Virus record (IMG/VR): IMGVR_UViG_3300043173_000258
Span: 1 to 28,958 of that record
Source of the DNA: a virus
Taxonomy: Duplodnaviria; Caudoviricetes
DNA: 28,958 nucleotides
Reading direction: 5' to 3' (one strand)
Within the stretch, counting starts at the first letter, position 1. Each line of letters opens with the position of its first letter. The notes below the pieces were generated by a model. That model worked only from the letters and a program-made list of their open reading frames with translations, did not search any database and was not told the DNA's origin. The position numbers and the translations under genes are program-made. This document shows positions 1 to 18,102 of this stretch, one piece after another.

Positions 1-141
1 GGCGACGCGATGGTGAGAGCGGCGCAGGGGATGCAGCGTCACCTGGAGCTGCTGGAGCCGAGCGAGCCCGACGCGCTGGAGCCGCTTCGCGAGATCGCGG
101 CTGCGATGGATCGTCGCACACAGGCGGAGTTCGAGGAGTAG
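1..141 (+). CDS. partial hypothetical protein (3' end)
   Basis: Frame 1 is open from the window edge to TAG 139-141 with GC3-rich codons (…EIAAAMDRRTQAEFEE*). Confidence 0.6.
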   Translation, partial: GDAMVRAAQGMQRHLELLEPSEPDALEPLREIAAAMDRRTQAEFEE

Positions 142-202
142 GGCGCGAGAAGGCTGCGGGCGCTTCGGAGACCCAACGCTCCGGGCGCCCGCAGTTGCGT
201 TC
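141..202 (+). terminator. long GC hairpin after stop codon (terminator or processing stem)
   Basis: GGCTGCGGGCGC-TT-CGGAG (152-170) pairs with CTCCG-G-GCGCCCGCAGTT (179-196); no strong U tract. Confidence 0.45.
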
Positions 203-333
203 GTCGCAGCGGCGTCGATACTGATCGACACACACACACGAGGTCAACCGAATGAGCTTCACCTGAATGCCGAGCACGCTCGCCGCCGTGTCGGGTCGAC
301 ACCCACTGTCAACCCACACACACGGAGGCGACG

Positions 334-654
334 ATGAACGCCAACGGCACGACCTACCTGAAAGTGAAGATCAAGAGCCTGGCAGCCGAGGCTCGCATCA
401 TCCGGCTGGAAGAGCGACGCGCCACGAGCACGAGCCTGAAGTGCGGGCTCGCCGAGCACAGGCGCGGAGTCGTACGACGCGAGGCCCGTCTGTCACAGCT
501 CGCGTATGGCTTCCTGCGCGGCCGCGCGCTGGCGGCGATCGAGTCGAAGCGCCGGCCTGGGAACGCCCCTGACTGGAAGCGAGTCGCGTCGCTCGTCGCT
601 CGCTACGCGTCGAACGCGTCGCAGGCCGCTACGCTCGACGAGTGGCGCGCGTAG
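334..654 (+). CDS. phage hypothetical protein (LKVKIKSLAAEARIIR motif)
   Basis: (AC)n-GGAGG-CGACG-ATG start; GC3-rich codons. Confidence 0.8.
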   Translation: MNANGTTYLKVKIKSLAAEARIIRLEERRATSTSLKCGLAEHRRGVVRREARLSQLAYGFLRGRALAAIESKRRPGNAPDWKRVASLVARYASNASQAATLDEWRA

Positions 655-662
655 CGACAGAA

Positions 663-696
663 GAGGCCCGGGGCGGCGAGCGTAGCCCCGGGCCTC
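663..696. terminator. hairpin between convergent genes, possible bidirectional terminator
   Basis: 12-bp perfect stem GAGGCCCGGGGC/GCCCCGGGCCTC between stops at 654 (+) and 719 (-). Confidence 0.55.
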
Positions 697-718
697 CGAT
701 CGTCCCATAGAGGCGATT

Positions 719-1216
719 CTACGGCGTGGCGTCCCAGCCCGCTCTCGTCTCTGCGCGCTCGACGATCGACTGCGCTGCGTCCCGGCAGCCCTCGCAGTGT
801 GCTTCGACCGGGTGGAACGGATCGCCGGTCAGGCACGACGGACAGCGTGCGTCCTCGTCCGAGTGGTCGAGGAAGTGTGGCCAGTCGAGCGCCACGACGT
901 CCGGCTGGCTCACCGAGGTGAACCCGATCGACTCGACGCGCCAGTAGGTCGGCGACTCCCAATCGCACTTCGGGTCGTCTGCGCCTGGGGCCGGGACCTC
1001 GATGACGTCACCCACGCTCAGGCTCGGGCACCGCCTGGGCTGGAAGTCGTTCTGCCCGAAGTGGAAGGCGCCGTTGAGCACCGCTGCCGGATACTCGTCG
1101 TCCTCCAGCGGGTGCTCGGCCATCCCCGGCCACGTGTCCCTGATGTCGATCGGACGGAGCATCGTAGGCTCTCCGTCGTGGCCCGTGAACGCGGTCATCC
1201 ATGCGTAGACTCTCAT
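719..1216 (-). CDS. YodL-like domain protein with C-terminal CxxC…CxxC zinc-finger motif
   Basis: SLSVGDVI…YWRVESIGF resembles the YodL motif; CPSC…CEGC; TGATG coupling to upstream gene. Confidence 0.65.
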   Translation of the reverse strand: MRVYAWMTAFTGHDGEPTMLRPIDIRDTWPGMAEHPLEDDEYPAAVLNGAFHFGQNDFQPRRCPSLSVGDVIEVPAPGADDPKCDWESPTYWRVESIGFTSVSQPDVVALDWPHFLDHSDEDARCPSCLTGDPFHPVEAHCEGCRDAAQSIVERAETRAGWDATP

Positions 1217-1620
1217 CAGCTCGTCTCCCCATCGTGCTCGTCGCGCAGTGCCAGGATCTGCGACGGGCTGTCAGAGAGTCGCCCGAAGCGCGTCGTGATC
1301 CGGCGCCGTGCCAGGTCGTGGAACGCCTCGTGCAACTCGTCGATCAGTCGTGACGATCCCATCGCCGCGACCCACTCCAGGGTCTCGGGCCTGGGGTCAA
1401 GCCCAGAGCGCGGGCTGACCTCGTGCATCGCGATCAGCCCCTGGATGTGCTCGCGAAGGTCGTCGGGGAATTCCCGATCACCCGTGACGAGCGATACCTG
1501 CTCAACCATCGTGTGCTCGATCGCGGCGACGGCCTCCAGGAACGTGTCGTACACGTTCGAGGAAGTCCCTTCGCTCAGGCCCGCGATCTCGCGCGCTGCG
1601 CCGTCGAAGTAGCTGCTCAT
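1216..1620 (-). CDS. hypothetical protein (MSSYFDGAAREI…)
   Basis: Start revised to ATG 1620 with GGAGG RBS and ATGA overlap with the upstream stop. Confidence 0.7.
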   Translation of the reverse strand: MSSYFDGAAREIAGLSEGTSSNVYDTFLEAVAAIEHTMVEQVSLVTGDREFPDDLREHIQGLIAMHEVSPRSGLDPRPETLEWVAAMGSSRLIDELHEAFHDLARRRITTRFGRLSDSPSQILALRDEHDGETS

Positions 1621-2015
1621 GACGCCACCTCCGACTCGTCCAGCATGCGCCAGGAGCGCATGTGGCTGACGCTGGCCTTGAAGCCCTTCCCGGTCCCGTC
1701 CTCGATCTTGATCGGGTACTTCTTGGCGAGCTTGTTCAGGCCCACGACGGTGAAGACGCGATTGCCGTGGTCGATGAACGAGCGCCCGAGCCAGTCGCTC
1801 GGGATCCCGAGCTTGTCGGCGAAGCGCTCCCACTCGACGTCGGCCTTGCCGCGGCCGCCCGCCTCCGTGCACGTCACCTTGAAGCTCACGGAGCCAGCCT
1901 CACTGTCGTACCGCGACCGGGGCTCCACGGTGACGTCCATCCCCAGGCTCTTGGCGACCTTCGCCATCTCGTGCTCGAATCTGTTCCGTGTGTACTTTGC
2001 TGAACTGCGGTCCAT
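1617..2015 (-). CDS. hypothetical protein
   Basis: CACACAC-GAAGGAGAACGAT-ATG leader; 132 aa. Confidence 0.8.
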   Translation of the reverse strand: MDRSSAKYTRNRFEHEMAKVAKSLGMDVTVEPRSRYDSEAGSVSFKVTCTEAGGRGKADVEWERFADKLGIPSDWLGRSFIDHGNRVFTVVGLNKLAKKYPIKIEDGTGKGFKASVSHMRSWRMLDESEVAS

Positions 2016-2042
2016 ATCGTTCTCCTTCGTGTGTGCTGATGC

Positions 2043-2159
2043 CTACCAGCGTGGGTCGTTCGTTTGTTCAAACTCACCGTCCTCGATCAGGACGGCCGGT
2101 CCGACGCGCTCGCACTCGTCGAGCAGCGCGAGCACGTCGGGGTCGATGTCGTCGTTCAC
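2043..2159 (-). CDS. small acidic protein, 38 aa (MNDDIDPDVLALLDECERVG…)
   Basis: GTG overlaps the upstream TGA and fills the gap; below the ORF-track size cutoff. Confidence 0.5.
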   Translation of the reverse strand: MNDDIDPDVLALLDECERVGPAVLIEDGEFEQTNDPRW

Positions 2160-2662
2160 GACGTCGTCTCATCGTCGATGACGATCAGCTTGGCGCCGAT
2201 GTACTCCAGGTTCGTGACGTTGGCGCCGTGTGCGCCCCCGCCCTTGTAGATCAGCACCACTTCGTTCGTGCGACGAACCTTCCAGCGACCCGCGAGCACC
2301 TTGTGCTTGACGAAGTCGCCGTTGTGGATCTCCTTGCCATTCGAGAGCCTGATCAGCTTGTAGGTCGGACGGCGAGTCGCGCCAGCGTCGTCGTCGCTCG
2401 CCAGGTCCTCGTCGTCCACCACGAGGTCGGTCGCCTCGTCGATCGCGTCGAGCAAGGCCCGCAGGAGCGGTGACGCTCGTCGCACCGTGTTCGTGTACCG
2501 CTCCGCGAAGTCGTTGAACGCGACGTGGAGCGCGGCCTGCTGCTCGGCCGGCGCTTCGGTGATGACGTCGAAGAGGGCGCTGGCGAGCGTGTTCCTGTTG
2601 GTGGCGCGCTCAGCGATCTGGCGCTGGGCTCGCTCGTAGTTCTTGGTGTGCTTGTTGCTCAT
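2156..2662 (-). CDS. hypothetical protein (MSNKHTKNYERAQ…)
   Basis: Start revised to 2662: (AC)n…GGAGAACGAG-ATG; lies directly downstream of the hammerhead. Confidence 0.8.
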   Translation of the reverse strand: MSNKHTKNYERAQRQIAERATNRNTLASALFDVITEAPAEQQAALHVAFNDFAERYTNTVRRASPLLRALLDAIDEATDLVVDDEDLASDDDAGATRRPTYKLIRLSNGKEIHNGDFVKHKVLAGRWKVRRTNEVVLIYKGGGAHGANVTNLEYIGAKLIVIDDETTS

Positions 2663-2694
2663 CTCGTTCTCCGTGGCGCGTGTGTGTGTGGCTT

Positions 2695-2745
2695 CCTGGA
2701 CGCCCGAGGGCGTTTCGGCCGATGCCACTCGGCCTCGTCAGCAGG
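2695..2745 (-). ncRNA. type I hammerhead self-cleaving ribozyme
   Basis: Minus strand reads CCUG-CUGACGA-GGCCGA(GUGGCA)UCGGCC-GAA-ACGCC(CUCG)GGCGU-C-CAGG. The complete CUGANGA/GAAA/GUC core and all three stems are present. Predicted cut is between 2699 and 2698. Confidence 0.9.
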
Positions 2746-2747
2746 GG

Positions 2748-2954
2748 CTACCCGACCACCGTCACGCCGTTGTGGCAGAGAGCGAAAATGTCATGGCGGT
2801 CTCTGGCGTGATCGAGAATTGCGATCGGCGCGAAGCGCCCGTCCTCGTTAACTGCGATCACGTAGCTCAGGCTGTCGAGGTCGATCAGCTTGGCGAGCGC
2901 CTTCACGGCATTGGCTCGGGTCTTGTAGGTTCGGTCGGTTCGTAGAATGTCCAT
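2748..2954 (-). CDS. hypothetical protein (MDILRTDRTYKTRANAVKAL…)
   Basis: Start revised to 2954: (AC)n-CACCAAGGAGAACGAG-ATG. Confidence 0.8.
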   Translation of the reverse strand: MDILRTDRTYKTRANAVKALAKLIDLDSLSYVIAVNEDGRFAPIAILDHARDRHDIFALCHNGVTVVG

Positions 2955-2997
2955 CTCGTTCTCCTTGGTGGTGTGTGTGTTGGGATTCATCTCGGCT

Positions 2998-3174
2998 CTA
3001 CTTCGAGGCGAGCCACGCGATGCACGCGCTGGCGTTGCCGGACTTGCTCGGGCGACTCGCGCCCGGGCTCTTGATCTTGTACGTGCCGGCCTTGTCGCCG
3101 AGCTGGACGGTGAAGCCCAGGGGGCGGGCGGCGCGGACGACGGCCCAGAGAGTCGGCTGAAGCTTCATGATCAC
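2998..3174 (-). CDS. small hypothetical protein
   Basis: GGAGG RBS; GTG 3174 (or ATG 3168) coupled to upstream TGA; the longer 331-aa track ORF is a repeat read-through. Confidence 0.6.
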   Translation of the reverse strand: MIMKLQPTLWAVVRAARPLGFTVQLGDKAGTYKIKSPGASRPSKSGNASACIAWLASK

Positions 3175-3305
3175 TTGACCTCCTGGGCGATCGACGCGCT
3201 GGCACTGACGACGTTGGAGCCGGGAAGCTCCCAGCTCTGCAGGGCGGGGACGGCGATCGAACCCAGCACCCATGCGATCGAGATTGCGATCAGAAGCTTG
3301 GCCAT
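3171..3305 (-). CDS. small membrane or secreted protein, 44 aa
   Basis: GAGGAGAACGAA-ATG; hydrophobic N-terminus LLIAISIAWVLGSIAV; first gene of the leftward operon. Confidence 0.7.
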   Translation of the reverse strand: MAKLLIAISIAWVLGSIAVPALQSWELPGSNVVSASASIAQEVK

Positions 3306-3352
3306 TTCGTTCTCCTCTTTCGGGCGTGTTTCTCTCTGCCGCCCTGACACTC

Positions 3353-3381
3353 TTATCGTCCTGACCCCGATCGAGGTGGAG
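3353..3381 (-). promoter_or_regulatory. putative promoter of leftward operon (CTCCAC-N15-GACGATAA)
   Basis: Same GACGATAAG box and 15-nt spacing as at 4649 and 6905. Confidence 0.55.
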
Positions 3382-3594
3382 TGAATTAGCCGTAAGAGAA
3401 GGAGGAACCGCCCTCGAGCCTGCGTGCGCGTTGCGCCGGTAACGCAACCTCTTGAATGGCCTACGCCCAGCGATCGGCGGACGGTGGGTATGCTCGCCGC
3501 CCTCCCCTGGTCGATCGAGCCAGGCCCTGACGAGACCAGCGAGAGAGGCGGTCCCAGCGCGCTCGTCCTGCTCTCGCTCAGCTCGCGCCCACAC

Positions 3595-3970
3595 GCCGAC
3601 CACATTGCGCCACAATGTTGTGAGCGCAGACCACATCCGTTTTTCGCAGACCACATCCGTCGGCGCCGACGACATCCGACCACAATGGCCACAATCCCAC
3701 ACTTGCGCATCACCTGCGTGTGTTGCGCACATGTTGCGCATTGTGCGGGAGAGTGACGGATGTCGTCGGTCGTGACGGATGTGGTCGGCGACCGACGGTT
3801 GTGGTCGGCGGCCACAATGTTGTGACCCATTGCAGACGGATGTCGTCGGCGGTGACGGATGTCGTCGGCGACCGACGCATTGTGTCGGCGGCCACAATGT
3901 TGTGGCCCATTGCAGACGGATGTGGTCGGCGACCGACGAAGGTTGTCGGCGGTGACGAAATGTGTCGGCG
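3595..3970. repeat. bidirectional iteron-like repeat array (candidate origin or terminus)
   Basis: GACGGATGT(C/G)GTCGG-like units at 3755, 3774, 3794, 3835, 3854, 3874, 3915, 3935, 3954; reverse copies at 3626, 3646, 3665; 80-bp higher-order duplication. Confidence 0.85.
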
Positions 3971-4314
3971 GTGTCGGAAAGCGCGGTTGGCATACTTCTT
4001 ACGGCGGCGGTCGGTGACCAATTTTGTATGCCAAAAAGTTGGCACAGAATATCTTTCCGACGGCGCAGCGACCAAGCAACTCACACGCAAAACAAGCAGT
4101 CTGTACGCAGTTCAAAAACCATGCCATGCGCAAGTCCCGCGTATCAGGTGAACGGGCCACCCCCCGTATGCTCCCAGCCACCCTGGCTACGGCAGCGCTC
4201 GTGGCAGCTCAGAGCGTCGTTTCAGGATCGACACGCAGTGCGTCTCGTAACCGCGCGCTATCGCTTGGGAGATAGTGAACCGCACGAGCGCCCTGTGGAT
4301 TTGTCTGTCTATCG

Positions 4315-4343
4315 CTAAAGAGAACGCATAGAATGGACGTTAT
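4315..4343 (+). promoter_or_regulatory. putative promoter of rightward operon (CTAAAG-N15-GACGTTAT)
   Basis: TAAAG upstream box and variant downstream box at the same spacing, 55 nt before ATG 4399. Confidence 0.5.
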
Positions 4344-4398
4344 ATAGAAGGAGGCGCCGCAAGGAAGCGGGCCGCAGACAGACAGCAGGAGAGAGACG

Positions 4399-4644
4399 AT
4401 GACCGACGACCAACGCAAAGCGAAGTGGGAGCAAGGCCGAGAGCGCCGCGAGGAGATCGAGGCCATTCGCACGAAGCAGGCCACGTGCCGACACCGATTC
4501 AGCGAGACGGTCTGGACGGTCGGCTTCACCAACCTTGGCCGTGGCGAACGCGGACAGGAGCGCCAGGGCATCACGGTGCGGTGCGCGAAGTGCGACAAGA
4601 CCGCCGTCCGTAACTGCGCGACTGGCCGCCTGGTCTACCGGTAA
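4399..4644 (+). CDS. hypothetical protein, putative zinc-binding (CxH…CxxC…C)
   Basis: AGGAG RBS; 81 aa. Confidence 0.7.
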   Translation: MTDDQRKAKWEQGRERREEIEAIRTKQATCRHRFSETVWTVGFTNLGRGERGQERQGITVRCAKCDKTAVRNCATGRLVYR

Positions 4645-4648
4645 GGGG

Positions 4649-4677
4649 CTTCAGTCTCAGACTGAAGGCGACGATAA
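4649..4677 (+). promoter_or_regulatory. putative promoter CTTCAG-N15-GACGATAA with overlapping palindrome
   Basis: Motif repeated at 6905; inverted repeat CTTCAGTCT-C-AGACTGAAG. Confidence 0.6.
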
Positions 4678-4731
4678 GAGAAGTGAGGCGCGGCACGGGC
4701 CGCGACCGAGACAGGGACAAGGAGAACGACG

Positions 4732-5205
4732 ATGGCAACCAAGACCAACCAGGCAGCACGCACACGACACCAGGCGAGCCCCACAGCGTACTACCAGCGC
4801 GCCGGCTTCCGCCCCCAGTACCAATTCACCGATGGCACCAAGAGCGTCTCGGCCAGCCTGCGACGCGGCTGGAAGAACGCAGTGGCCGACGCATACGAGA
4901 GCGTGCTGGCGCTGGCGACGGACCCGAGCTTCGACGCTGAGATTGTCGAAGAGCTGGAGCTGGTCCGCTGCGAGCTTCGCTCCCACATCCGATCGGTCCG
5001 GCGCGAGTCGTGGGCCGGAGCCCGGCAGACCGAGAGCGCCTTCATCGCGATGCGCGACGACGTCACGGCCGCGCTGAAGGAGGTCCGCTCGCAGGCCAGC
5101 GCACGTCGCCGCGAGCTGGACGCGATCATAGCCACCGGGGTCAGCGCGATCGGCTTCGACGCCTGGCAGGCCGCGCTCGACGAGCGCCACCCGACCGACA
5201 GCTAG
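4732..5205 (+). CDS. hypothetical helical protein
   Basis: AAGGAGAACGACG-ATG leader; 157 aa. Confidence 0.8.
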   Translation: MATKTNQAARTRHQASPTAYYQRAGFRPQYQFTDGTKSVSASLRRGWKNAVADAYESVLALATDPSFDAEIVEELELVRCELRSHIRSVRRESWAGARQTESAFIAMRDDVTAALKEVRSQASARRRELDAIIATGVSAIGFDAWQAALDERHPTDS

Positions 5206-5236
5206 CCCACACACACACGAGCGAAGGAGAACGACG

Positions 5237-5509
5237 ATGGACATCCAACGAGCAGAGCAGATCAGGGAAGCGTTCGGCCACTGCACGTCAGTGTACGAGT
5301 GCAGGAACGCCGAAGAGATCGTGGCCGACTTCGCCAGCATCGAGGAGTCACACAGGACCGAAGCGAACTGGGTTCACATCCAGCTCAGCGTCGAGTCGAT
5401 CGTGGCGGAACGCTCAGGCTGCTACGGCGAGTGGAGGGACGAGATGGAGCCGGGCGTCATCGAACGGCTCGCCGCGATCGGGATCGACCCGACGCAGAAC
5501 ACCTGGTAG
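5237..5509 (+). CDS. hypothetical protein
   Basis: (AC)5-GAGCGAAGGAGAACGACG-ATG leader. Confidence 0.8.
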   Translation: MDIQRAEQIREAFGHCTSVYECRNAEEIVADFASIEESHRTEANWVHIQLSVESIVAERSGCYGEWRDEMEPGVIERLAAIGIDPTQNTW

Positions 5510-5535
5510 CACGCACACACACGAAGGAGAAGACG

Positions 5536-5688
5536 ATGGACACCACGGAAATCGACAGCCTGATCGAGTCAATCATCTCGCAGCTCAACGACGCGAAGAA
5601 CAACCACGGCACGATCATCGACGACGCGGAGCTGATCAAGTTCCTACGCGAGATGGACGGGGACATCGGCGACTTCATCGAGGAGTAG
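5536..5688 (+). CDS. small highly acidic protein, 50 aa
   Basis: (AC)n-GAAGGAGAAGACG-ATG; MDTTEIDSLIESII…GDFIEE. Confidence 0.75.
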   Translation: MDTTEIDSLIESIISQLNDAKNNHGTIIDDAELIKFLREMDGDIGDFIEE

Positions 5689-5756
5689 CCACACACACAC
5701 GAGTTGCGCGGCACGTCGCCGCGAACGAGAGAACGAAACGAACGAAGGAGAACCAA

Positions 5757-6818
5757 ATGTCAAACGTACACGACGCCAAGAGCCTCTACTTCAACGCCAC
5801 CAATCGCAAGCGCTCCTACGGTGGTCGCTTCGGGACCGACATCGGTGACTGCACGAACATCGACGAGGCAGCCGCCAAGGTCCCGGGCTTCACGGATCGG
5901 ATCGCCAAGCTCCCGATCAGCGTCGAGCTGCCCGGCTCGATCGTGTCGAACATGACCGGCGGCAAGGACACCAAGCCGGGGATGGTCGACATCGACCGCA
6001 AGTACGCCACCGTGAACGAGCGGACCGGCGCGCGGTACGGCGTGGTCGGCGAGGACTACGAGGTCTGTCAGTGGGACAGCGCGTTCCTCGTCCCACGCAT
6101 CCTGCAGCAGGAAGGCAAGCTGGAGTTCGACGCTGCGGGCACCACGAAGGACGGAGCCAAGCTCTGGATGTCGATGAAGATCGACAGCGGGATCATTCGC
6201 CAGCTCGACGGAAGCGAAGACGCCCTGGAGCACTACCTGCTCTTCAGCAACGCACACACGGGGAAAAACTCCGTGATCGGGGGCCTGCACACGCATCGCT
6301 TCTCGTGCAGCAACGCGTTGGCCACGACGATCAGGGGGATGAAGACGCAGTTCAGACTCTCCCATCGTGGCAACCTCGAGGAGCGCATCGCCGAGGCACA
6401 CGGAATGATCGTGGAGGCGACGAGCGCGCTCGATCAACTCCAGGACACGTTCCAGGCCCTGGCGCTGAAGCGCATGACGAAGAAGCAGTTCCGCAACTTC
6501 GCCAAGAAGATCCTCGACGAGGTACAGGGGACGCACGACGAGCACGACGGTCAGCGGGACGCTCGCGACAGCGAGGACTCACGCACGGCCAAGATCGACG
6601 AGCTGGAGGCGTACTTCGGCTCGGGTAACCAGGGAGCCGGCGCAACGGCCTGGGGCGCATACCAGACCATCACGGGCTACCTGGACGCCAAGCAGGCCGA
6701 GCGTGACCTGGCCAAGACGAGCGTGGCTCAGCTCAATCGCCACTTCGAGTCGACCGCCTTCGGCAAGAACCATCGGACCAAGAGCAAGGCACTCAACCTG
6801 CTCCTGGCTCGCAAGTAG
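5757..6818 (+). CDS. DUF932-family phage/plasmid protein
   Basis: Start revised to 5757 (GAAGGAG RBS); motifs GVVGEDYEVCQ, YLLFSNAHTG, RFSCSNAL, TAWGAYQTITGYLD. Confidence 0.8.
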   Translation: MSNVHDAKSLYFNATNRKRSYGGRFGTDIGDCTNIDEAAAKVPGFTDRIAKLPISVELPGSIVSNMTGGKDTKPGMVDIDRKYATVNERTGARYGVVGEDYEVCQWDSAFLVPRILQQEGKLEFDAAGTTKDGAKLWMSMKIDSGIIRQLDGSEDALEHYLLFSNAHTGKNSVIGGLHTHRFSCSNALATTIRGMKTQFRLSHRGNLEERIAEAHGMIVEATSALDQLQDTFQALALKRMTKKQFRNFAKKILDEVQGTHDEHDGQRDARDSEDSRTAKIDELEAYFGSGNQGAGATAWGAYQTITGYLDAKQAERDLAKTSVAQLNRHFESTAFGKNHRTKSKALNLLLARK

Positions 6819-6825
6819 ACGAACG

Positions 6826-6863
6826 GCGGGCGGCGAGGGCGGAGGGGCCCTCGACGTTCCCGC
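6826..6863 (+). terminator. GC hairpin after the DUF932 gene
   Basis: CGAGGGC/GCCCTCG inner stem with GCGGG/CCCGC outer stem; no U tract. Confidence 0.35.
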
Positions 6864-6901
6864 GGAAGCGCACACACAGCGTGCTGCGATTCCTCGGGAA
6901 C

Positions 6902-6933
6902 GGGCTTCAGCTGAAGCCCCGACCAGACGATAA
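6902..6933 (+). promoter_or_regulatory. putative promoter CTTCAG-N15-GACGATAA with 18-bp palindrome
   Basis: GGGCTTCAGCTGAAGCCC (6902-6919); GACGATAA at 6926-6933. Confidence 0.6.
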
Positions 6934-6997
6934 GTAGATAGCACCACGGAGAGCGCACAGGGCGCGACCCGACCTGAACGAACGAAGGAGAACGACG

Positions 6998-7363
6998 ATG
7001 GCCAAGAGCAACGAGCGCTTCAACATCAAGGTCCCGCTCGGCGACGCCGAGCACAAGAGCGAGGAGAAGGGCTCCACGAAGTACGTGAAGCGCGCACTCG
7101 CGAACCTCAAGGGCACCAAGCCCAAGCGCACCGGGATCGTCTTCTGGCGCAAGACGCACTACCTCGCGACGGAGATCCAGGACCACCCGGGATCGTTCGT
7201 GGTCAGCCGCAAGGCCAAGGCCAGCGAGACGCCCGAGAAGGCGGAGCCGAAGAAGGCGACGCCCAAGGGCAAGGCCACGACCACGGCCAAGAAGAAGGGC
7301 GCCAAGGCTCGCGCGTCCAAGGGCAAGTCCACCAAAAAGGAGGGAGTTCGTCGCGCCGCCTGA
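6998..7363 (+). CDS. Lys/Ala-rich histone H1-like basic protein
   Basis: Strong RBS; C-terminal KKATPKGKATTTAKKKGAKARASKGK; may be fused to the next ORF (see findings). Confidence 0.7.
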   Translation: MAKSNERFNIKVPLGDAEHKSEEKGSTKYVKRALANLKGTKPKRTGIVFWRKTHYLATEIQDHPGSFVVSRKAKASETPEKAEPKKATPKGKATTTAKKKGAKARASKGKSTKKEGVRRAA

Positions 7364-7418
7364 CAGTCAGGAGGACGATGAGACCCAAGCCGGCGACGAC
7401 GCTGGCGCACCGGGCGGA

Positions 7419-7649
7419 GTGACGGACATGGATGGGAAGGCCCTGCAGGTGGGAAGCAAGGTGCGCGTCCCCGAGTACAAGAGCAGCGCACTCGGAGTCG
7501 CCATCCCCGCCTTCACGGGCACCATCACAGAGATCCTGGAAGACGCGAAGGGGCTGATGCTCCGGCTTCAGCAGCGACACGTCTCTCACGATCGAGCCGT
7601 CAGACCCGCGATGGTGTCAAGGCGCCGCTTCAAGGCAGCGGCAGCATGA
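7419..7649 (+). CDS. small KOW/SH3-like beta-barrel protein
   Basis: DGKALQVGSKVRV…FTGTITEI pattern. Confidence 0.55.
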   Translation: MTDMDGKALQVGSKVRVPEYKSSALGVAIPAFTGTITEILEDAKGLMLRLQQRHVSHDRAVRPAMVSRRRFKAAAA

Positions 7650-7930
7650 CAGGACGGTGGACGAGCGAGGCCCGGATGGGGGGCTTCGCTCGTTCGCGGT
7701 ACTGGGGGGTAGTGACGATGATCGACTTGGACACACAGGAGACGAACGACAAGTGCCAGGCGTGCCGGCGTAACGATGCGGCCATCCTGGACGACGCGGG
7801 AACCGCGTACTGCCCGCAGTGCTGGTTCGTGCGATGCGAGAGCGCCATCGGCGGGACTCGTACTCGGGCGCGACGCCCAGGCGAGGTGTACCTGAGCCTG
7901 GTGGTGACGGCGGGCATGGACGGTGGCTGA
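7646..7930 (+). CDS. zinc-ribbon protein (CQAC…YCPQC)
   Basis: ATGA overlap; alternative start ATG 7718. Confidence 0.6.
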   Translation: MTGRWTSEARMGGFARSRYWGVVTMIDLDTQETNDKCQACRRNDAAILDDAGTAYCPQCWFVRCESAIGGTRTRARRPGEVYLSLVVTAGMDGG

Positions 7931-8288
7931 CGTCGGACGCGTACGCTTCGTGTGCCTCCACTGCTTCGACGTCGTCGTGGTGGTCGGGGCACGCGACGCG
8001 TGTGCGACGAGAGAGGCGGCGACGCTCTGTCGAGCCTGCCAGCGCTCTGCGCTCCCACTCGATTGTTCCACAAATACTGTAATTGGCGAGAGCGCTCTCT
8101 CTGGCGTCTCTCGCGAGAACGAGCCTGCTGGGGCGGCGAGCGTAGCTGCCTCTCCCCGATCGGCTGATACGGGAGCACTCGCAGGCCGCTCATGGACAGA
8201 CTACCCCCGGCCTTGGGGCGTCTCAGGGCGCGACGAGCGAGAGGCGCGAGAGCCGGACGAGCGCGACGAGCGAGAGGAGACAGGATGA
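7923..8288 (+). CDS. hypothetical CxxC…CxxC protein with low-complexity tail
   Basis: CLHC…CRAC; stop overlaps the next ATG; the 3' half has atypical codons. Confidence 0.45.
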   Translation: MADVGRVRFVCLHCFDVVVVVGARDACATREAATLCRACQRSALPLDCSTNTVIGESALSGVSRENEPAGAASVAASPRSADTGALAGRSWTDYPRPWGVSGRDEREAREPDERDEREETG

Positions 8289-8599
8289 GAGCGTACCAGC
8301 GACGCGACGTCACGGTGATCAAACTCGTGACGGTAGTAGAGAGAGCGAAGGAGGCGTGGGTGTTCGTCCAGCACGACTTCACGTACTGGGATGACGACCT
8401 CGCACAGTGGGCGTCGGACGGATACGAGCACGAGCTGGTGGCCGTGTTCGAGTCGATCGCCGAACTGTTCACACAGTGGGACGTCGAGGCTGAGTCCCTC
8501 TATGACGTGACCGTCCTGTTCGACGGTCAGGAGGAGCAAGCAACATGGCTGACGAAGAACACGCTACTGGAAGCGGACCCCGAGCACGTGATGGTCTGA
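8285..8599 (+). CDS. hypothetical acidic protein
   Basis: Start revised to 8285 with GAGGAG RBS. Confidence 0.7.
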   Translation: MRAYQRRDVTVIKLVTVVERAKEAWVFVQHDFTYWDDDLAQWASDGYEHELVAVFESIAELFTQWDVEAESLYDVTVLFDGQEEQATWLTKNTLLEADPEHVMV

Positions 8600-9207
8600 C
8601 CGAGCTCAAGCCGGGCGATCGCTCGTGTGGCTCGTGTCGCTTGTGCTGCAAGGTGCTCGCGATCACAGAGATCCGCGACGACCCCGGGCCTGGGTACGAG
8701 CCGGCCGGCGATCGCCACACGTTCAAGAAGCCCTCGGGCGACTGGTGCCAGTTCTGCAAGGCGTCCGAGGCCGGCGGGTGCTCCATCTACGAGGAGCGAC
8801 CACACAGCTGCGTCGTCTACCAGTGCGGGTGGCTCCAGGGTGTGGGCACGAACGACGAGCGCCCGGACAAGCTGAAGGTCGTGATCCAGATCGAGGACAC
8901 GGACGAGTACGGTGTGGTGGCCATCTTCTACGAGTCCTTCCCTGGCGTGATGAAGAAGTCGAAGCGTGCCCAGCGGATCTTCAGAGAGCTGTACGAGATG
9001 GAAGAGGTCAGCGGGTGCGCGATCATCCCGAGCCCGAGCCTGCCCAGGCGAATCATGCACAAGCGGTTCGGCGTCGAGAGCCACGTGCCTCTCAACGAGC
9101 AGTGGAAGGAAGGCGAGCTGCTGGTGGACGTCGAAGCCCAGACGGTGGGCGGAGTACCGATCGACGACACACAGCGTGACGAGTCGAGTGACGAAGAAAC
9201 CGAGTAG
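8545..9207 (+). CDS. YkgJ-like CxxCxxCC cysteine-cluster (Zn/Fe-chelating) protein
   Basis: CGSCRLCC…WCQFC…GCSIYEERPHSC…YQCGWL; GAGGAG RBS. Confidence 0.8.
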   Translation: MADEEHATGSGPRARDGLTELKPGDRSCGSCRLCCKVLAITEIRDDPGPGYEPAGDRHTFKKPSGDWCQFCKASEAGGCSIYEERPHSCVVYQCGWLQGVGTNDERPDKLKVVIQIEDTDEYGVVAIFYESFPGVMKKSKRAQRIFRELYEMEEVSGCAIIPSPSLPRRIMHKRFGVESHVPLNEQWKEGELLVDVEAQTVGGVPIDDTQRDESSDEETE

Positions 9208-9230
9208 ACTAACGAGAAGGAGATAGGCAG

Positions 9231-9449
9231 ATGAGCAAGATGAAGCCCGAGGACGCTCTGGTGATCACACAGAGCGATCCCACGAACTACAGGATCGTGA
9301 AGCGACCTGATGGCAAGCTCGCGCTTGACAATCGGAACAACGCAGGCGACCAGCGCATCCTGCGTCGTCCCTTCGAGGACACGGACAAGGTCGTGGCCCA
9401 TTGGTTCAGAGCCGCGTCAGCAGCCGTGGCAGAGGGGGAGTCCTGGTGA
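9231..9449 (+). CDS. hypothetical protein
   Basis: GAAGGAG RBS; 72 aa. Confidence 0.7.
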   Translation: MSKMKPEDALVITQSDPTNYRIVKRPDGKLALDNRNNAGDQRILRRPFEDTDKVVAHWFRAASAAVAEGESW

Positions 9450-9688
9450 CCGCACAAGAGGATCTGGAAGCGTGGCTGGACCTGCCCGATCGAGAGATGT
9501 GTGTCAAGGCCAGGCAGGTACTGAACTCGCACGTCCTGCACGTCGTGTGGGACAAGGAGGAGAACGCGATCGGGATGATGACGACGTGCGACGACCAGAC
9601 GGAGCTACTGGAGCTGGTCGAATGGGTCGCGAAGCGAATCCGTAGCGGCGAGCACGTCGCGAGTCGCGAGGAGGTCAGGCTGGTATGA
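9446..9688 (+). CDS. hypothetical protein
   Basis: GTG 9446 coupled to the upstream TGA; GGGGAG RBS. Confidence 0.7.
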   Translation: MTAQEDLEAWLDLPDREMCVKARQVLNSHVLHVVWDKEENAIGMMTTCDDQTELLELVEWVAKRIRSGEHVASREEVRLV

Positions 9689-10029
9689 CGACGACTGGAG
9701 ACCTCGAGCCACACAGGCCCACCTACATGCGATCGTCTGGCACGCCCGATAGCCAGACGTGCTTTGAGTGCGGGACACCGTGGCCGTGCGAGATCGTTCG
9801 CGCCGCTTCAGCGCCGGAGCCGTTCTGCCAAGCGTGCGGTCAGTCGTGGACGACGCACGGACGGGTGACGCACGAGACCACGGCGGCCGTGTTCTATCGC
9901 TGCCGGTGCGGGTCGTACTACCGCTTTGGCAAAGCGAGCTACGAGGTCGTCCAGTCGGTGGGCGATCACGTCTCGCGAAAGCCGATCGCGAGAACACACA
10001 CACACACACGAGGTAGGCGCTCAGGGTGA
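9685..10029 (+). CDS. double zinc-finger-like protein
   Basis: H…CFECGTPWPC and CQAC…CRCG; ATGA overlap; (AC)8 near the 3' end. Confidence 0.7.
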   Translation: MTTTGDLEPHRPTYMRSSGTPDSQTCFECGTPWPCEIVRAASAPEPFCQACGQSWTTHGRVTHETTAAVFYRCRCGSYYRFGKASYEVVQSVGDHVSRKPIARTHTHTRGRRSG

Positions 10030-10186
10030 GCGGAAATCGGAAGTCACATCGAGCGGGATACGAGGTCGCCAGAGCCACGGTACTCGCCCCACTGGCCACG
10101 TCTCTTCGGAGCCCTCTAGCCGACACGCGCGACTGCGGAGCCCCGACACCCTGGGCGCTGAGCGTTCACACACGAAAGGAGAACGG

Positions 10187-10399
10187 ATGGAGATCAAGAC
10201 ATACTGGCGACTGGTTGTGCAGATCGAGAAGGTGACCGAGCACGACAGCGGCAAGGCGGAGCTGCGCGGGATCGCAGTCGAGCCGGGTCGCACGATCCTC
10301 GCCATCTCGACAGTCGAGCCGGGCGAGGGCTGGCAGCGCTACATCAGGCTGATCAAGGAAGTGGACACGAGCAAGAAGGGAACGGGGATTCAGGAATAG
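10187..10399 (+). CDS. hypothetical protein
   Basis: CACACAC-GAAAGGAGAACGG-ATG leader. Confidence 0.75.
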   Translation: MEIKTYWRLVVQIEKVTEHDSGKAELRGIAVEPGRTILAISTVEPGEGWQRYIRLIKEVDTSKKGTGIQE

Positions 10400-10430
10400 C
10401 GACGACACACACACAGAAGGAGACGAACGG

Positions 10431-10703
10431 ATGGCACCGAAGGCACCGCTAGCACCACTGCACGTGAGCACGTACCCGAGTCTGGACGAAGTCGATCGGG
10501 CGTCGCGCACACGTATCGCGTACTGGATGCGATACCTCGCGAGCCCTGGCCTGGACGCGGCCGGCAAACCCAACTTCGCGGACGTCACGGCGATGGAGTC
10601 CGCGACGATGGACCTCATCTCCGAGCGACACACACACCTGGGCGGCTGGCAGCCACGGCTGTCGAAGGACGTGGACAGGCTTCACGAGAAGGAGCGGACA
10701 TGA
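10431..10703 (+). CDS. hypothetical protein
   Basis: (AC)n-AGAAGGAG leader. Confidence 0.75.
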   Translation: MAPKAPLAPLHVSTYPSLDEVDRASRTRIAYWMRYLASPGLDAAGKPNFADVTAMESATMDLISERHTHLGGWQPRLSKDVDRLHEKERT

Positions 10704-11047
10704 TGAAGATGGTGGTCAGGGCGAAAGGCGAGACGCGCCTGCTGCTCGGGCTGACGCGTGAGAACGTCGACCGCATGATGGCCGGCGAGCCTGTGCTCGT
10801 GAAGCTCGCTGATCTGGGGCTCGCGTTCGCACGCCCACCTGGGCCCGGCGAAGTGCTGTTCGAGATGGAGGCCGGCGTGATCGCGATCGACTACGGGAAC
10901 ACGCTGGCTGAGCTTCAGACGCGCTGGGGGCTGGCCGCAGCGGCTGTTCGCACAACGGACGGAGGAGACCAACGAATTGACGAAGCTGAAGCGTCGCGCC
11001 TCACGCCCGCCGGAGACGACGGGGGAGGCGACGATGGACCTGGATGA
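10700..11047 (+). CDS. hypothetical protein (LLGLTRENVDRMMAGEPV)
   Basis: AAGGAG RBS and ATGA overlap. Confidence 0.75.
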   Translation: MMKMVVRAKGETRLLLGLTRENVDRMMAGEPVLVKLADLGLAFARPPGPGEVLFEMEAGVIAIDYGNTLAELQTRWGLAAAAVRTTDGGDQRIDEAEASRLTPAGDDGGGDDGPG

Positions 11048-11240
11048 GAAGCAGCACCACGCGGTTCGGATATTCAATCAGCTACGCGTGGTGACGAAGC
11101 TGATGGACGAGGGCGTCAAGAACGGACTGGTAATAGAGCTGCCCGTGTGGGAGCAAATCGTGGACCATCGCGTTCCCGCTACTCGCGAGGTCAAGCTCAC
11201 AGACTTCCGTATCTACATCAACCCGCTGGAGGACGTGTGA
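11034..11240 (+). CDS. hypothetical protein
   Basis: GGAGG-CGACG-ATG at 11034. Confidence 0.65.
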   Translation: MDLDEKQHHAVRIFNQLRVVTKLMDEGVKNGLVIELPVWEQIVDHRVPATREVKLTDFRIYINPLEDV

Positions 11241-11467
11241 TGACGCTACGCGAATGGCTCGGAGTCGTAGAGCTGGGTGTGGTCTCGATCACGATGGGAT
11301 GGTTCTGGTGGAGTGTGCGACGCGACCGGAAGCGCACGGCGCGAAAGATCGAAGAGATGGACGTCGCGCTTGACGTCGAGCTAGCGAAGATCACGAAGGA
11401 GCTGGACGAGAAGTATCGGCTGAGACGAGAAGGTGCTGCGCCAGGCGCAGCGAGGAGGCTGCACTGA
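11240..11467 (+). CDS. single-TM protein with coiled-coil tail
   Basis: WLGVVELGVVSITMGWFWW hydrophobic segment; TGATG coupling. Confidence 0.65.
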   Translation: MTLREWLGVVELGVVSITMGWFWWSVRRDRKRTARKIEEMDVALDVELAKITKELDEKYRLRREGAAPGAARRLH

Positions 11468-11733
11468 TGTCGAAGCGAGAGCGAACGGAAGAGGAGCTGC
11501 ACAGGCTGGAGACTGTCGCCCAGCGTGTGGGTGGCCTGATCGGTGGCGCGATCGACTCGGGCGACTCGGGCGCGCTGTTCGCGCTCCTGATGTTCACGCC
11601 AGGCGAAGAGGGCTGGATGACATGGGTGTCGAACGCAGAGCGACCGGACATGGTCAAGGCGCTGCGCGAGATGGCCGACAAGCTCGAGGCTGGGCTGGAC
11701 ATGCCGCCGGGATCGTCACACAGGAAGCACTGA
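11467..11733 (+). CDS. hypothetical protein (FALLMF…WVSNAERPDMVKALRE)
   Basis: GAGGAGG RBS and TGATG coupling. Confidence 0.75.
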   Translation: MSKRERTEEELHRLETVAQRVGGLIGGAIDSGDSGALFALLMFTPGEEGWMTWVSNAERPDMVKALREMADKLEAGLDMPPGSSHRKH

Positions 11734-12312
11734 GTGGCACGACACTCGATCGCGTGGGAGCGCCCGCGACGTGACGTCCACTTTGAGTTCGCCCGTCTGG
11801 ACTACGCCGCAGAGTGGTCGCTGCTCGCTGTGTGCCAAGAGCCGATAGAGATCACGCTCGGGAGAGACCCGACCGAGCTGGTCGCGAACCCCATCTGCCA
11901 CTACCGCTTCCGCGTCTCGGACTACGAAGTCAGGCGCACAGGTAGCCCGATGTGGGGGGCAGAGGCGCTGATGTTCGAGAGGATGCGCGCCGAGTGGCCG
12001 GAGCCGAGCGAGGACCAGCGCATCCTGATGCTGTCGTACGGGCGCCTGTGGTCACGGATGTTCCGGTCGGAGCTTCCCGAGTCGATCGTTCGCCATCTAC
12101 TCGGGCTCGGCCTGCCCGTGATCGCGAGGGACGCACACGTCGCATCGGAGCGATTCCGCCAGCTGGGACGCGCGCTCGCCGATACACAACACACAATACG
12201 GCGAGCGATGGCCGTCCCGACCGAGTATCTTCTAAGAGATAGTGAAGCGATCGACAGACCGAAACCACTTGCCCCGCCGAGTCGCGGGCTCCCCATCTAC
12301 AAGCCGAGGTGA
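11734..12312 (+). CDS. hypothetical protein
   Basis: 192-aa ORF filling the operon; stop overlaps the next GTG. Confidence 0.6.
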   Translation: MARHSIAWERPRRDVHFEFARLDYAAEWSLLAVCQEPIEITLGRDPTELVANPICHYRFRVSDYEVRRTGSPMWGAEALMFERMRAEWPEPSEDQRILMLSYGRLWSRMFRSELPESIVRHLLGLGLPVIARDAHVASERFRQLGRALADTQHTIRRAMAVPTEYLLRDSEAIDRPKPLAPPSRGLPIYKPR

Positions 12313-12509
12313 AGCTGATGACGAGAAGGCCGAGAGTCCATCGCAAGGATGGCATCCTGAACAGGACTGTGTGTGGTCAGATGCTGGCACAGGTCTCAGC
12401 GTGGACCGACGAGGACGCTGACGCGACGTGCCTGAAGTGCGAGAAGGAGATCACGTTCAGGCGAGAGAGCGGGCTGTACCTGAAGAGGGAGAATCGACCT
12501 CATGCGTGA
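12309..12509 (+). CDS. small zinc-binding protein (H…CG…TCLKC)
   Basis: His/Cys ligand spacing; coupled start. Confidence 0.65.
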   Translation: MKLMTRRPRVHRKDGILNRTVCGQMLAQVSAWTDEDADATCLKCEKEITFRRESGLYLKRENRPHA

Positions 12510-12801
12510 AGCCGTACACGACGAAGATCCCCACCCTGGCGAAGCGCCGCACGTGATCACGGAGCTGTACGCGTTCGTGGCGATCGACCCAGCGTGTGGG
12601 TGCGAGGGGATCATGGCGATGGTCGATGAGCGTGGGAAGGGCTGGGTGCCGATGATCGGATCGGACCAGCGTCGCGTGGACACGCTCAGACCGATCGCGG
12701 ACGCGATCGCCAAGGGTGGCGGGATCACGTACCGCATCCTGAAGTTCACGCTGACCGGAGAGGAGGACCCATCGTGCGGCTCTATATCTGGACGCGCGTG
12801 A
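12502..12801 (+). CDS. hypothetical protein
   Basis: GGGAG RBS; 99 aa. Confidence 0.7.
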   Translation: MREAVHDEDPHPGEAPHVITELYAFVAIDPACGCEGIMAMVDERGKGWVPMIGSDQRRVDTLRPIADAIAKGGGITYRILKFTLTGEEDPSCGSISGRA

Positions 12802-13037
12802 CCGGGGTGCTGTACCCGAGAGATCGGAAGGACGTCGCGTGTGTGGTCGCCGTCGCGCGCTCCGTGCTCTCGGCCAGGGCCATGCTCCAGACGCGCGCCA
12901 ACGAGCTGAGATCGAGCGAGCGTGATCCCTGGGCGGCGCCGTCCCTGAAGGACATCGCGGACTACAGCACGAAGGTCGACGACACGAAGGAGCGTGTGTG
13001 GGTGTTCCCGAGAGCGACCGAGTATGGAGGCGACTGA
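12774..13037 (+). CDS. hypothetical protein
   Basis: GAGGAGG RBS before GTG. Confidence 0.6.
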   Translation: MRLYIWTRVTGVLYPRDRKDVACVVAVARSVLSARAMLQTRANELRSSERDPWAAPSLKDIADYSTKVDDTKERVWVFPRATEYGGD

Positions 13038-13431
13038 TGCCTGGCCGAGCTACGTCATCCTGGACCCGGAGATCGGGAACGGTCACGTGCCCGTGCCGTG
13101 CGAGCCAGACGAGTGGGCGCGCTGGTCCGAGGAGCACGCGAGCGATCGTCGCGTGGGCAAGGACATGGTCGGGACGGTCATGCTCTCGACGGTCTTCCTC
13201 GGGCTGGACCATAGCTTCGGCGCCGGTCCGCCGCTCTACTTTGAGACGATGGCCTTTGATGAGAGCGACGTGCGGACGAACACGATCGGTGATCGCAGCT
13301 ACACACACACCGCTACGGTCGATGACGTGTTCGAGCGCTACTCAACGTGGGAGGCTGCGGAGCTCGGTCACGCCGAGTGGCTTGCCAAGCTTCGCGAACG
13401 GATGGAGGTAGCTGCTGATGCTCCTGGGTGA
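13024..13431 (+). CDS. phage hypothetical protein (STVFLGLDH…PLYFETM motif)
   Basis: Motif recalled from phage hypothetical proteins; start uncertain. Confidence 0.7.
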   Translation: MEATDAWPSYVILDPEIGNGHVPVPCEPDEWARWSEEHASDRRVGKDMVGTVMLSTVFLGLDHSFGAGPPLYFETMAFDESDVRTNTIGDRSYTHTATVDDVFERYSTWEAAELGHAEWLAKLRERMEVAADAPG

Positions 13432-13855
13432 CCACAACTACGACTGCGGGTGCCGAGTCAGGTCCGGCGTGGACCCGGCGGACGGGCTCGACACGTCGCG
13501 ACTCTACACGTGCGAGCTACGAGACGCGTGTCCGAACGCACAGCTGTTCATCAGGACGGTCGAAGCGGCGGAGCGCGAAGCGGGTGGCGTCGTGCGTCGC
13601 TTCAAGACGATAGGCGAGAAGGTGCCGAGGGAGTGGCTCCCGCTCGTACCGGAGCACGACGACTCGGACCCGACGGGCCCACCGGAGCCGATCGACAAGC
13701 GGTTCCCGTGTGGGTGCTGGCTGAAGTGCGAACCGCCAACGGACGACGCGCCACCGCTGATGCTGTTCGTCGCGTGCAGGGAGTCGTGCGCGACTGCGCT
13801 CCAACACATCATGCTTCTCAAGTCGATCTGCGGCGACAACATGGAGGTGCTCTAA
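13418..13855 (+). CDS. protein with two CGC…C…C modules
   Basis: GGAGG RBS; YDCGC…C…C and FPCGC…C…C. Confidence 0.7.
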   Translation: MLLGDHNYDCGCRVRSGVDPADGLDTSRLYTCELRDACPNAQLFIRTVEAAEREAGGVVRRFKTIGEKVPREWLPLVPEHDDSDPTGPPEPIDKRFPCGCWLKCEPPTDDAPPLMLFVACRESCATALQHIMLLKSICGDNMEVL

Positions 13856-14061
13856 TGGAGATGCCGCCGCCTGACGTGAAGTTCGTGTGCGGGTGTGAGC
13901 TGAAGCTGGGATTTAACGAGGCGGGCGAGCGCACGGCGGTGTTCATCGCGTGCCCGGACCAGCTGGACTGCGAGGTGGTCCAGGAGTTCAAGGCACGTGC
14001 GGAAGAGAAGAAGAGACGCGACCCGAACACGAAGCTGATCGTAAAGGAGACGCAGCAGTGA
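13855..14061 (+). CDS. small protein with one CGC…C…C module
   Basis: GGAGG RBS, TAATG coupling; FVCGCELK…FIACPDQLDC. Confidence 0.7.
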   Translation: MEMPPPDVKFVCGCELKLGFNEAGERTAVFIACPDQLDCEVVQEFKARAEEKKRRDPNTKLIVKETQQ

Positions 14062-14540
14062 GCCGACGCTCACAAAAGAAAAGGGGTGAGAGGATGGGAA
14101 GGGGCAAGACGTCAGACGAGTACAAGGATGGTGTGCGACGTGACCTGATCAGGATGTTCGCGTTGGCTGAGCTGATGTTCGAGGACGAGCGCGACATGCG
14201 TACGTGGATCGGGAGCGGGTGCACGGTGAACCCGGAGACCGTCCTGCGCTGGCAGAACTACGCAGACCTGAAGGATCGTAACGCGAACCACCCAACCGGG
14301 GATGCACGCGACGCGGTCATCACACTCGGCCAGCTAATACGCGATGACATGCGCGCAAAGCTTCACGGCTGGGAGCCCCCGCAACGGCCCGAGCCAGTCG
14401 AGCCTGTGCAGCTGCAGATGCCGAACGCAGAGACAGTCGAGCTGACGGCCGTGCGTGCGCTGATGGACAAGCTGGAGCGCGACGACGTGCTCAAGGTGAT
14501 GACCCAGGTGGTAACGCGCCTGGGAGAGACGGAGGTGTGA
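14058..14540 (+). CDS. hypothetical protein, possible HTH (VNPETVLRWQ)
   Basis: AAGGAG RBS with GTG 14058 (alternative ATG 14094). Confidence 0.65.
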   Translation: MSRRSQKKRGERMGRGKTSDEYKDGVRRDLIRMFALAELMFEDERDMRTWIGSGCTVNPETVLRWQNYADLKDRNANHPTGDARDAVITLGQLIRDDMRAKLHGWEPPQRPEPVEPVQLQMPNAETVELTAVRALMDKLERDDVLKVMTQVVTRLGETEV

Positions 14541-16431: not shown

Positions 16432-16476
16432 CGATCAACGATATAGTCAAGTCAACCAACGAGAAGGAGAGCCAAC

Positions 16477-17256: not shown

Positions 17257-17261
17257 TCACC

Positions 17262-18098: not shown

Positions 18099-18102
18099 GC
18101 TG

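Follow-up and report, generated by a model that had tools for sequence, protein, structure and literature searches.

Hammerhead ribozymes of DNA phages, which a 2026 paper treats as already described (PMC13725137), were surveyed in 2011 by Perreault, who reported hammerheads flanking prophage genes and proposed that they process transcripts into operon- or gene-length mRNAs (PMC3088659). In that study, whose taxa include F. prausnitzii, three native tandem arrangements from phage polycistrons cleaved in vitro and one cleaved in E. coli; a halovirus example, HHphage, lies in the early region 13 nt before a start codon, and the 5' end of the early transcript falls within 3 nt of the cut (PMC3088659). 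Pseudoknots between stem I and stem II were noted in approximately 40% of representatives, across all three hammerhead types, and breaking one in a type II example led to large losses in cleavage rate, indicating that the contact is needed for fast cleavage; of the 18 consensus hammerheads assayed in that study, 4 showed no activity (PMC3088659). The layout discussed below and the processing idea were thus already published in 2011, with processing partly shown there (PMC3088659). A 2019 review nevertheless describes the in vivo role of phage hammerheads as open, and an effect on stability or stoichiometry as unproven for the whole class (PMC6765202); no test of that role during infection was found in a literature search covering few subscription journals. 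Two further systems produce comparable ends. The engineered, sTRSV-derived RiboJ sits behind a promoter and retains a 5' hairpin, to which its effect has been attributed, and a synthetic hammerhead ahead of a ribosome-binding site (RBS) raised mRNA approximately twofold and protein two- to tenfold (PMC6206723). In T4, the protein enzyme RegB cuts early transcripts at intergenic sites within GGAG, inactivating the message and leaving 5'-OH and 2',3'-cyclic phosphate ends upon which a polynucleotide kinase (PNK) then acts (PMC3014915).

The locus considered here lies in a 28,958-nt viral contig (hereafter the window, meaning this whole stretch of DNA). A sequence-only reading had placed a hammerhead on the minus strand at 2695-2745, in sense orientation between two small genes, and each element that it named (the core, stems of 4, 6, and 5 bp, and the GUC triplet) was located where it had been put, as were the 2-nt gap after the upstream stop codon and the 36-nt leader. 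The motif is confirmed as a complete type I hammerhead, predicted to be self-cutting, and is arranged with its flanks as follows.

2748..2954, minus strand: upstream gene, a small phage protein of 68 aa with no assigned function, UAG at 2750-2748
2745-2742, minus strand: stem I 5' strand (CCUG), pairing with 2698-2695
2741-2735, minus strand: catalytic core C3-A9 (CUGACGA)
2734-2729 and 2722-2717, minus strand: stem II, 6 bp (GGCCGA/UCGGCC), first pair G10.1-C11.1
2728-2723, minus strand: loop II (GUGGCA)
2716-2714, minus strand: core G12-A13-A14 (GAA)
2713-2709 and 2704-2700, minus strand: stem III, 5 bp with a 4-nt loop (ACGCC/GGCGU), pairs A15.1-U16.1 and C15.2-G16.2
2699/2698, minus strand: predicted cleavage site from the hammerhead consensus, after C17 (2699) of GUC, N1.1 being 2698
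2698-2695, minus strand: stem I 3' strand (CAGG), the first four bases of the predicted 5'-OH product
2692-2688, minus strand: putative pseudoknot strand (GCCAC), set off from stem I by an AA linker, inner three pairs conserved
2663..2698, minus strand: leader of the predicted downstream product, 36 nt, nearly unstructured (MFE -1.3 kcal/mol)
2689-2680, minus strand: (AC)5 within the leader
2677-2673, minus strand: second GCCAC within the leader
2672-2669, minus strand: Shine-Dalgarno-like GGAG
2156..2662, minus strand: downstream gene, 168 aa, with no assigned function, AUG at 2662

The type I core (C3 U4 G5 A6 N7 G8 A9 ... G12 A13 A14) is present in full, A15.1-U16.1 corresponds to A2713-U2700, the N-U-H triplet is the GUC ending at 2699, and the three helices surround the core with stem I open and stems II and III closed by loops. 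A structure descriptor returned 2695-2745 as the sole type I match on both strands of the contig. When the contig was shuffled 400 times with dinucleotides preserved, a site with stems as long as 4/6/5 bp never arose, one reaching 4/4/4 or more arose in 1 shuffle, and one reaching 3/3/3 or more in 5; the core pattern taken without its stems was matched in 66 of 100 shuffles and is not significant. When compared with the Rfam family RF00163 (Hammerhead_1, clan CL00010), as the sequence-only reading had advised, 2693-2747 aligned over the whole model with an E-value of 0.00048 in a 351-nt search, but its 25.2 bits fall below the gathering score of 34, which by Rfam's rule bars filing under RF00163 and does not bar membership of the hammerhead class. 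The motif shares with that family the open stem I topology, an identical core, and the GUC triplet, and differs from it in a shorter stem I (4 bp against 6), a longer stem II (6 bp against 4), and a loop II-tail pseudoknot absent from the model. As Rfam yielded no matches at the gathering level across the contig or by E-value across 1-18500, no other catalogued ribozyme was seen, and neither the descriptor nor a covariance model of the subclass described below, run with its filters off, found a second copy in this partial contig.

The feature that the sequence-only reading had not listed is the complementarity of loop II (GUGGC, 2728-2724) to the tail (GCCAC, 2692-2688), which would permit a 5-bp pseudoknot, and this was pursued through covariation in two complementary searches. 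In the first, the tail was fixed in the search pattern and loop II left free over 16 + 39 contig stretches, two rows that parse with another tail being excluded: loop II carried GGC in 10 of 17 distinct AAGCC-tailed hammerheads and GGU in none, while among AAACC-tailed hammerheads GGU appeared in 25 of 27 and GGC in none. All seven AAGCC rows lacking GGC have one other loop type in common. In the second, the loop was fixed as UGGYA and the tail left free in viral and genomic collections, where a type I parse was obtained for 63 of the 68 distinct viral matches and for 19 of the 22 from genomes. A matching tail triplet, wobble pairs counted, accompanied the loop in 63/63 of the viral examples (C-loop/GCC 25, U-loop/ACC 33, wobble-compatible 5, unmatched 0) and 17/19 of the genomic ones (C-loop/GCC 13, U-loop/ACC 3, wobble-compatible 1, unmatched 2); 32 of the 63 viral examples were new relative to the first search, and the split was unchanged. 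For comparison, a general type I sample had a comparable triplet in 14 of 80 hammerheads without such a loop versus 7 of 8 with it. As the sequences are related, Fisher values from these counts are not true probabilities.

In an alignment of the window with 19 rows hand-picked from the 46 others of the first search, pairing holds in 93.5% of cells. The third pair of the pseudoknot varies between U-A (11 rows) and C-G (9 rows), and the two G-C pairs are invariant, the tail side having been fixed by the search pattern. Compensatory changes occur in all hammerhead stems, and in stem I three of the four pairs have changed on both sides among the 20 rows. Conservation of the full 5-bp pseudoknot was rejected, with the outer two pairs forming in 13/20 and 6/12 rows; because the inner three pairs alone hold, the conserved part of the contact amounts to 3 bp, which the window lengthens to 5. 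Relatives from both phages and bacteria show covariation in this predicted 3-bp core. The sequence-only reading had cautioned that a 4-bp stem I might entail weak activity; the stem is indeed that short, and the concern is lessened by the covarying pseudoknot. Judged from its sequence, the ribozyme is very probably active. In one AAGCC-tailed lineage (L187, L188, L194, L196, and L201), loop II reads CGU(A/C)GCAA and is unable to form GGC:GCC; a different contact may be in use there.

Folding predictions bear on whether that activity would be expressed in the native transcript. The hammerhead fold is both the MFE and the centroid structure of the minimal 62-nt construct 2747-2686, whose folding energy is unremarkable against shuffles at its GC content (z -1.09). 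In longer constructs, stem I is predicted with a probability of just 0.1-0.3 by a model that ignores pseudoknot energy and folding order, and stem II falls to 0.56 in one construct. These alternative folds speak for a motif that is real in sequence and practically inactive through misfolding, as do the three competing partners of loop II, 2677-2673 and 2777-2772 also pairing with it at a duplex energy equal to that of the tail. Nevertheless, the core bases are all intact with no decayed pair, the folding model leaves out the very pseudoknot that covaries, and co-transcriptional folding would offer the proximal tail first, so that practical inactivity is considered very improbable.

The position of the motif was compared with that of other viral hammerheads by scanning 1 of 64 parts of a viral collection with the core pattern, from which an estimated 9000 stored viral stretches match. 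Of the 125 loci returned, 66 contained type I hammerheads whose stems reach 4/4/4 bp or more; 77 such hammerheads are distinct, and 68 of the 77 lay away from locus edges. An AUG open reading frame (ORF) of at least 30 codons within 60 nt of the cut was found on the sense side in 54 of the 68, with a Shine-Dalgarno-like motif in 32, against 9 and 0 on the antisense strand and 21 of 49 and 3 at a control site 200 nt downstream. A stop codon lay within 25 nt upstream in 43 of the 68, mostly at -8 to +7, a count without a control. The succession of stop codon, ribozyme, and RBS is the usual layout for phage type I hammerheads, and the window, in which stem I starts 2 nt past the UAG and the cut falls 36 nt before an AUG preceded by GGAG (sampled leaders span 11-58 nt), is ordinary in this respect. 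It likewise agrees with the hammerheads of Perreault (2011) in its sense orientation, its place between small genes, and the polycistron processing proposed for it, and it departs from them in occurring singly within a 29-kb contig, their clusters being frequent and not obligatory, and in having neighbors with no assigned function in place of ardA or a helicase (PMC3088659).

The closeness of the stop codon raises the possibility that translation gates the cut. A ribosome terminating at the UAG, given its footprint, would cover stem I and the core, with the result that the ribozyme would fire just when the upstream gene is untranslated, or only slowly under load. The 2-nt spacing and the stop codons near 43 of the sampled hammerheads accord with such an arrangement, although that number was obtained in phage genomes that are compact anyway; moreover, a terminating ribosome stays only briefly and no conditional element was found. 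Gating by translation is therefore rated as rather improbable.

The hammerheads with the UGGY loop and AARCC tail form a subclass that extends well beyond this locus. Members occur in genome records assigned to Bacillota, Alphaproteobacteria, Actinomycetota, and others, including the named strain Desulfoscipio geothermicus DSM 3669, and in one named phage record:

MG711465.1 ~52975-53035 (L241 3989-4067): unannotated hammerhead of Faecalibacterium phage FP_Brigit, 56.3 bits with the subclass model

Like the window's motif, the FP_Brigit hammerhead starts right past a stop codon, has the loop UGGCAC with GCCAC in its tail, and is followed by a gene at a similar distance (the next annotated gene begins ~40 nt past the cut, compared with 36 nt to the AUG in the window), whereas it carries an extra U after A9, has other flanking genes, and bears no ribozyme annotation in its record. 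The genes that follow the subclass are mostly unrelated unknowns: 5 of the 36 scanned, which were taken from 53 ORF references, match a PHROG, all of unknown function. Two or three subclass copies lie within a few kb of each other, each before a different gene, in several loci (L248-L250, L244-L245, L258-L259, L188, and L194). By eye, L204, L206, L208, L210, and their relatives have a further conserved hairpin between tail and RBS, which would make the leader of their cut product structured, unlike the window's.

The subclass falls below the Rfam threshold and is thus missed by standard annotation. It was not found singled out in the literature searched, outside of which many ribozyme papers lie, and its motifs had no match in 300 pages of the Perreault (2011) dataset, beyond which lies the type I alignment (pages 651-975). 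A broader proposal is offered tentatively, as one that is unlikely to hold: these hammerheads may constitute a distinct, uncatalogued portable cassette (stop codon, ribozyme, A/C-rich leader, and RBS). Its pseudoknot strand would also serve as the beginning of the new mRNA leader, and phages would exchange the cassette by recombination, with a ribozyme kept before the same gene because a protein-free, possibly ribosome-gated cut sets that gene's output. In any case, the covariation-defined subclass gains members in a named phage record and in strain DSM 3669.

The 68-aa protein has 8 homologues at 47-60% BLASTP identity, aligning from the Met at 2954, with no Pfam or PHROG match and, in the Atlas, just hypothetical viral clusters scoring under 0.9. 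The 168-aa protein has no Pfam or PHROG match and no usable Atlas match, and its relatives are encoded in none of 241 fetched loci; from its sequence it seems to consist of two modules, of which the first (residues 20-85) is 67% identical to a 72-aa protein and the second, reached through an acidic linker, is another small domain that matches nothing. A short acidic ORF of ~38 codons (2043-2159, minus strand) was seen by eye to overlap the stop of the 168-aa gene with its GUG start. Long close relatives were not found when the 68-aa, 168-aa, and 132-aa proteins were used as single queries in viral contigs, when an alignment was searched in genome contigs, or when one homologue (P0005) was searched in annotated phages.

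For the comparison of synteny proposed in the sequence-only reading, homologues of the upstream gene were collected in 60 fetched loci (32-53% identity, some redundant). In none of the 60 does a hammerhead follow the homologue's stop codon, which indicates that this gene family does not need one; in a single locus a type I hammerhead occurs on that strand at a distance of 679 nt beyond the stop. A 151-nt contig of depth 5 from another study matches 2587-2690 with one difference in 104 letters, and so represents a 99%-identical relative, with 47 further letters unmatched; a different sequencing run had no match to 2540-2860, from which nothing follows. The 30 of these that are visible, read by eye in the mRNA sense, comprise a perfect 7-bp stem III that opens A-C and closes G-U around a 4-nt loop, C at position 17 (GUC), a different 5-nt stem I strand, and the AAGCC tail of the window, lengthened by one CA. 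It thus seems that the gene is preceded in a near-identical phage by another hammerhead-like element, with the half comprising CUGA, GAAA, and stem II out of view; since the contig is single, of low depth, and possibly chimeric, and since that half is hidden, this evidence of a swapped ribozyme is supporting and not decisive. This hint of an exchanged ribozyme at one site is, together with the covarying pseudoknot, what the analysis chiefly adds. In several homologue loci (L136-L138, L153, L156, and L157), a CUGAGCA...GAAAC or AAAAC motif with short inverted repeats follows the homologue's stop codon; it occupies the position of the window's hammerhead and is scored by neither the descriptor nor the model.

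The hammerhead behaves as a portable intergenic cassette and not as part of either flanking gene family. It could also be a neutral or selfish passenger, spread by recombination between similar intergenic cassettes, whose cutting is tolerated and not useful. Its absence beside the upstream-gene homologues, the different version in the near-identical relative, the unrelated downstream genes, and the several copies per contig in some relatives would all suit a passenger. By contrast, the surroundings of the hammerhead showed neither a mobility gene nor a target duplication, and the compensatory changes in all stems and the pseudoknot, along with the strong bias toward the sense strand ahead of an RBS, point to selection on the RNA; a mere passenger is consequently thought quite improbable.

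The leader downstream of the cut was likewise examined for a special relation to the ribozyme. The sequence-only reading had tied the hammerhead to an (AC)n-RBS leader, and this tie was not borne out: the contig holds 13 runs of (AC)4 or more, several of which precede the RBSs of genes that have no ribozyme, and the (AC)n leader as a ribozyme-specific partner was rejected.

228-239, 316-323, 2680-2689, 2971-2980, and 5209-5218, contig coordinates: (AC)4+ runs
5515-5522, 5691-5700, 9994-10009, 10405-10414, and four more, contig coordinates: further (AC)4+ runs

Several of the runs lie directly 5' of a shared RBS motif, GGAGAACGA(N)AUG, which suggests a phage-wide unstructured translation leader. 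A switch in translation was also considered, in which cleavage would free the Shine-Dalgarno sequence and AUG of gene 2156-2662 from a helix with upstream coding sequence (2790-2776). The construct 2790-2640 does fold as a rod that buries both elements, with the hammerhead at its tip and a duplex energy of -13.4 kcal/mol. The energy needed to open the Shine-Dalgarno-AUG region, however, is no higher than in synonymous shuffles of the upstream gene at five construct lengths (30/60 to 48/60, and 34/120 and 68/120, shuffles being at least as high), and it is approximately the same in the product (3.9 kcal/mol) as in the precursor (2.9-5.6 kcal/mol). With neither comparison in its favor, release of a sequestered RBS by cleavage was rejected and is deemed extremely unlikely.

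That a genuine hammerhead is placed ahead of an RBS so as to cut a polycistron, as the sequence-only reading maintained, finds good support in its anatomy, in covariation, and in published precedent. The best explanation, held with somewhat more confidence than doubt, is that it cuts a leftward polycistron at 2699/2698 and gives the downstream genes a separate, probably longer-lived message. A single transcript would span ~3305 to 700; its RNA would fold during transcription, loop II would dock on the tail through the pseudoknot, and the ribozyme would cut after C2699, constitutively and without protein. From hammerhead chemistry, the upstream piece would bear a 2',3'-cyclic phosphate 3' end behind stems II and III, and the downstream piece a 5'-OH and the nearly unstructured 36-nt leader. 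As RNase E and G favor 5'-monophosphate over 5'-OH and PNPase requires a 3'-OH (PMC3014915), both pieces would be fairly protected in such a host: the 5'-OH end would escape decay of the 5'-monophosphate-dependent RNase E/G type, and the two halves would decay independently. An effect of the cut on stability or stoichiometry is plausible, and a stabilizing or uncoupling role, provided that the ribozyme is active, is reasonably probable. The resemblance to RiboJ lies in a hammerhead cut just 5' of the RBS that would yield a uniform 5' end, the window's leader being without the hairpin that RiboJ retains (PMC6206723).

The same ends could instead start a decay timer, in which the new, unprotected 5' end is attacked and the downstream genes are switched off or lowered. 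Degradation does follow glmS self-cleavage (PMC6765202), T4 converts the 5'-OH ends of its early mRNAs into RNase E/G substrates through RegB plus kinase (PMC3014915), and the leader of the predicted product has no protective hairpin. Unlike the RegB cut within GGAG, however, the predicted cut lies 26 nt before GGAG and keeps the Shine-Dalgarno sequence intact; the subclass, moreover, precedes many unrelated genes and occurs in genomes assigned to several phyla, which fits a general processing device, and no polynucleotide kinase family is among the matches listed for 38 proteins of this partial contig. Timed decay is accordingly regarded as unlikely, and processing into separate messages is retained as the preferred reading. 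The locus does not settle the in vivo role of phage hammerheads, and it offers a clean single-ribozyme junction suited to reporter tests.

The wider contig is a tailed-phage fragment, with the terminase large subunit at 20269-21936 and portal, head-tail adaptor, and head morphogenesis genes in its right part; 10 of the 38 proteins scanned have a PHROG match, and no tRNA genes were found. The sole sequencing run spanning all of it carries the label marine sediment metagenome and may be the source of the contig; no RNA sequencing run covering it is listed. A repeat-rich stretch at ~3600-4000 lies between two diverging arms of small genes, and the leftward arm, which holds the hammerhead, spans 3305 to ~720. 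The "early operon" of the sequence-only reading and the single transcript are inferences from gene size, layout, and a DUF932 gene in the opposite arm, given that no sigma-70-like promoters were found in 600-4700 and that Pfam and PHROG gave no match to any of the seven proteins scanned from the left arm. The leftward unit closes on a strong hairpin:

655..715, minus strand: hairpin past the last leftward gene, between convergent genes (z -3.23, 2/200 shuffles)

A terminator-like match at 681-666 falls within this hairpin, which, as modelled, is likely a terminator at the end of the leftward transcription unit; a portion of it recurs at 8130-8169 with 75% identity. Lastly, the stretch between the diverging arms contains an array of repeats of 19-20, 41, and 80 nt at 3755-3971 with an inverted partial copy at 3596-3688, and these repeats (3596-3973) could be an origin, packaging, or regulatory region.
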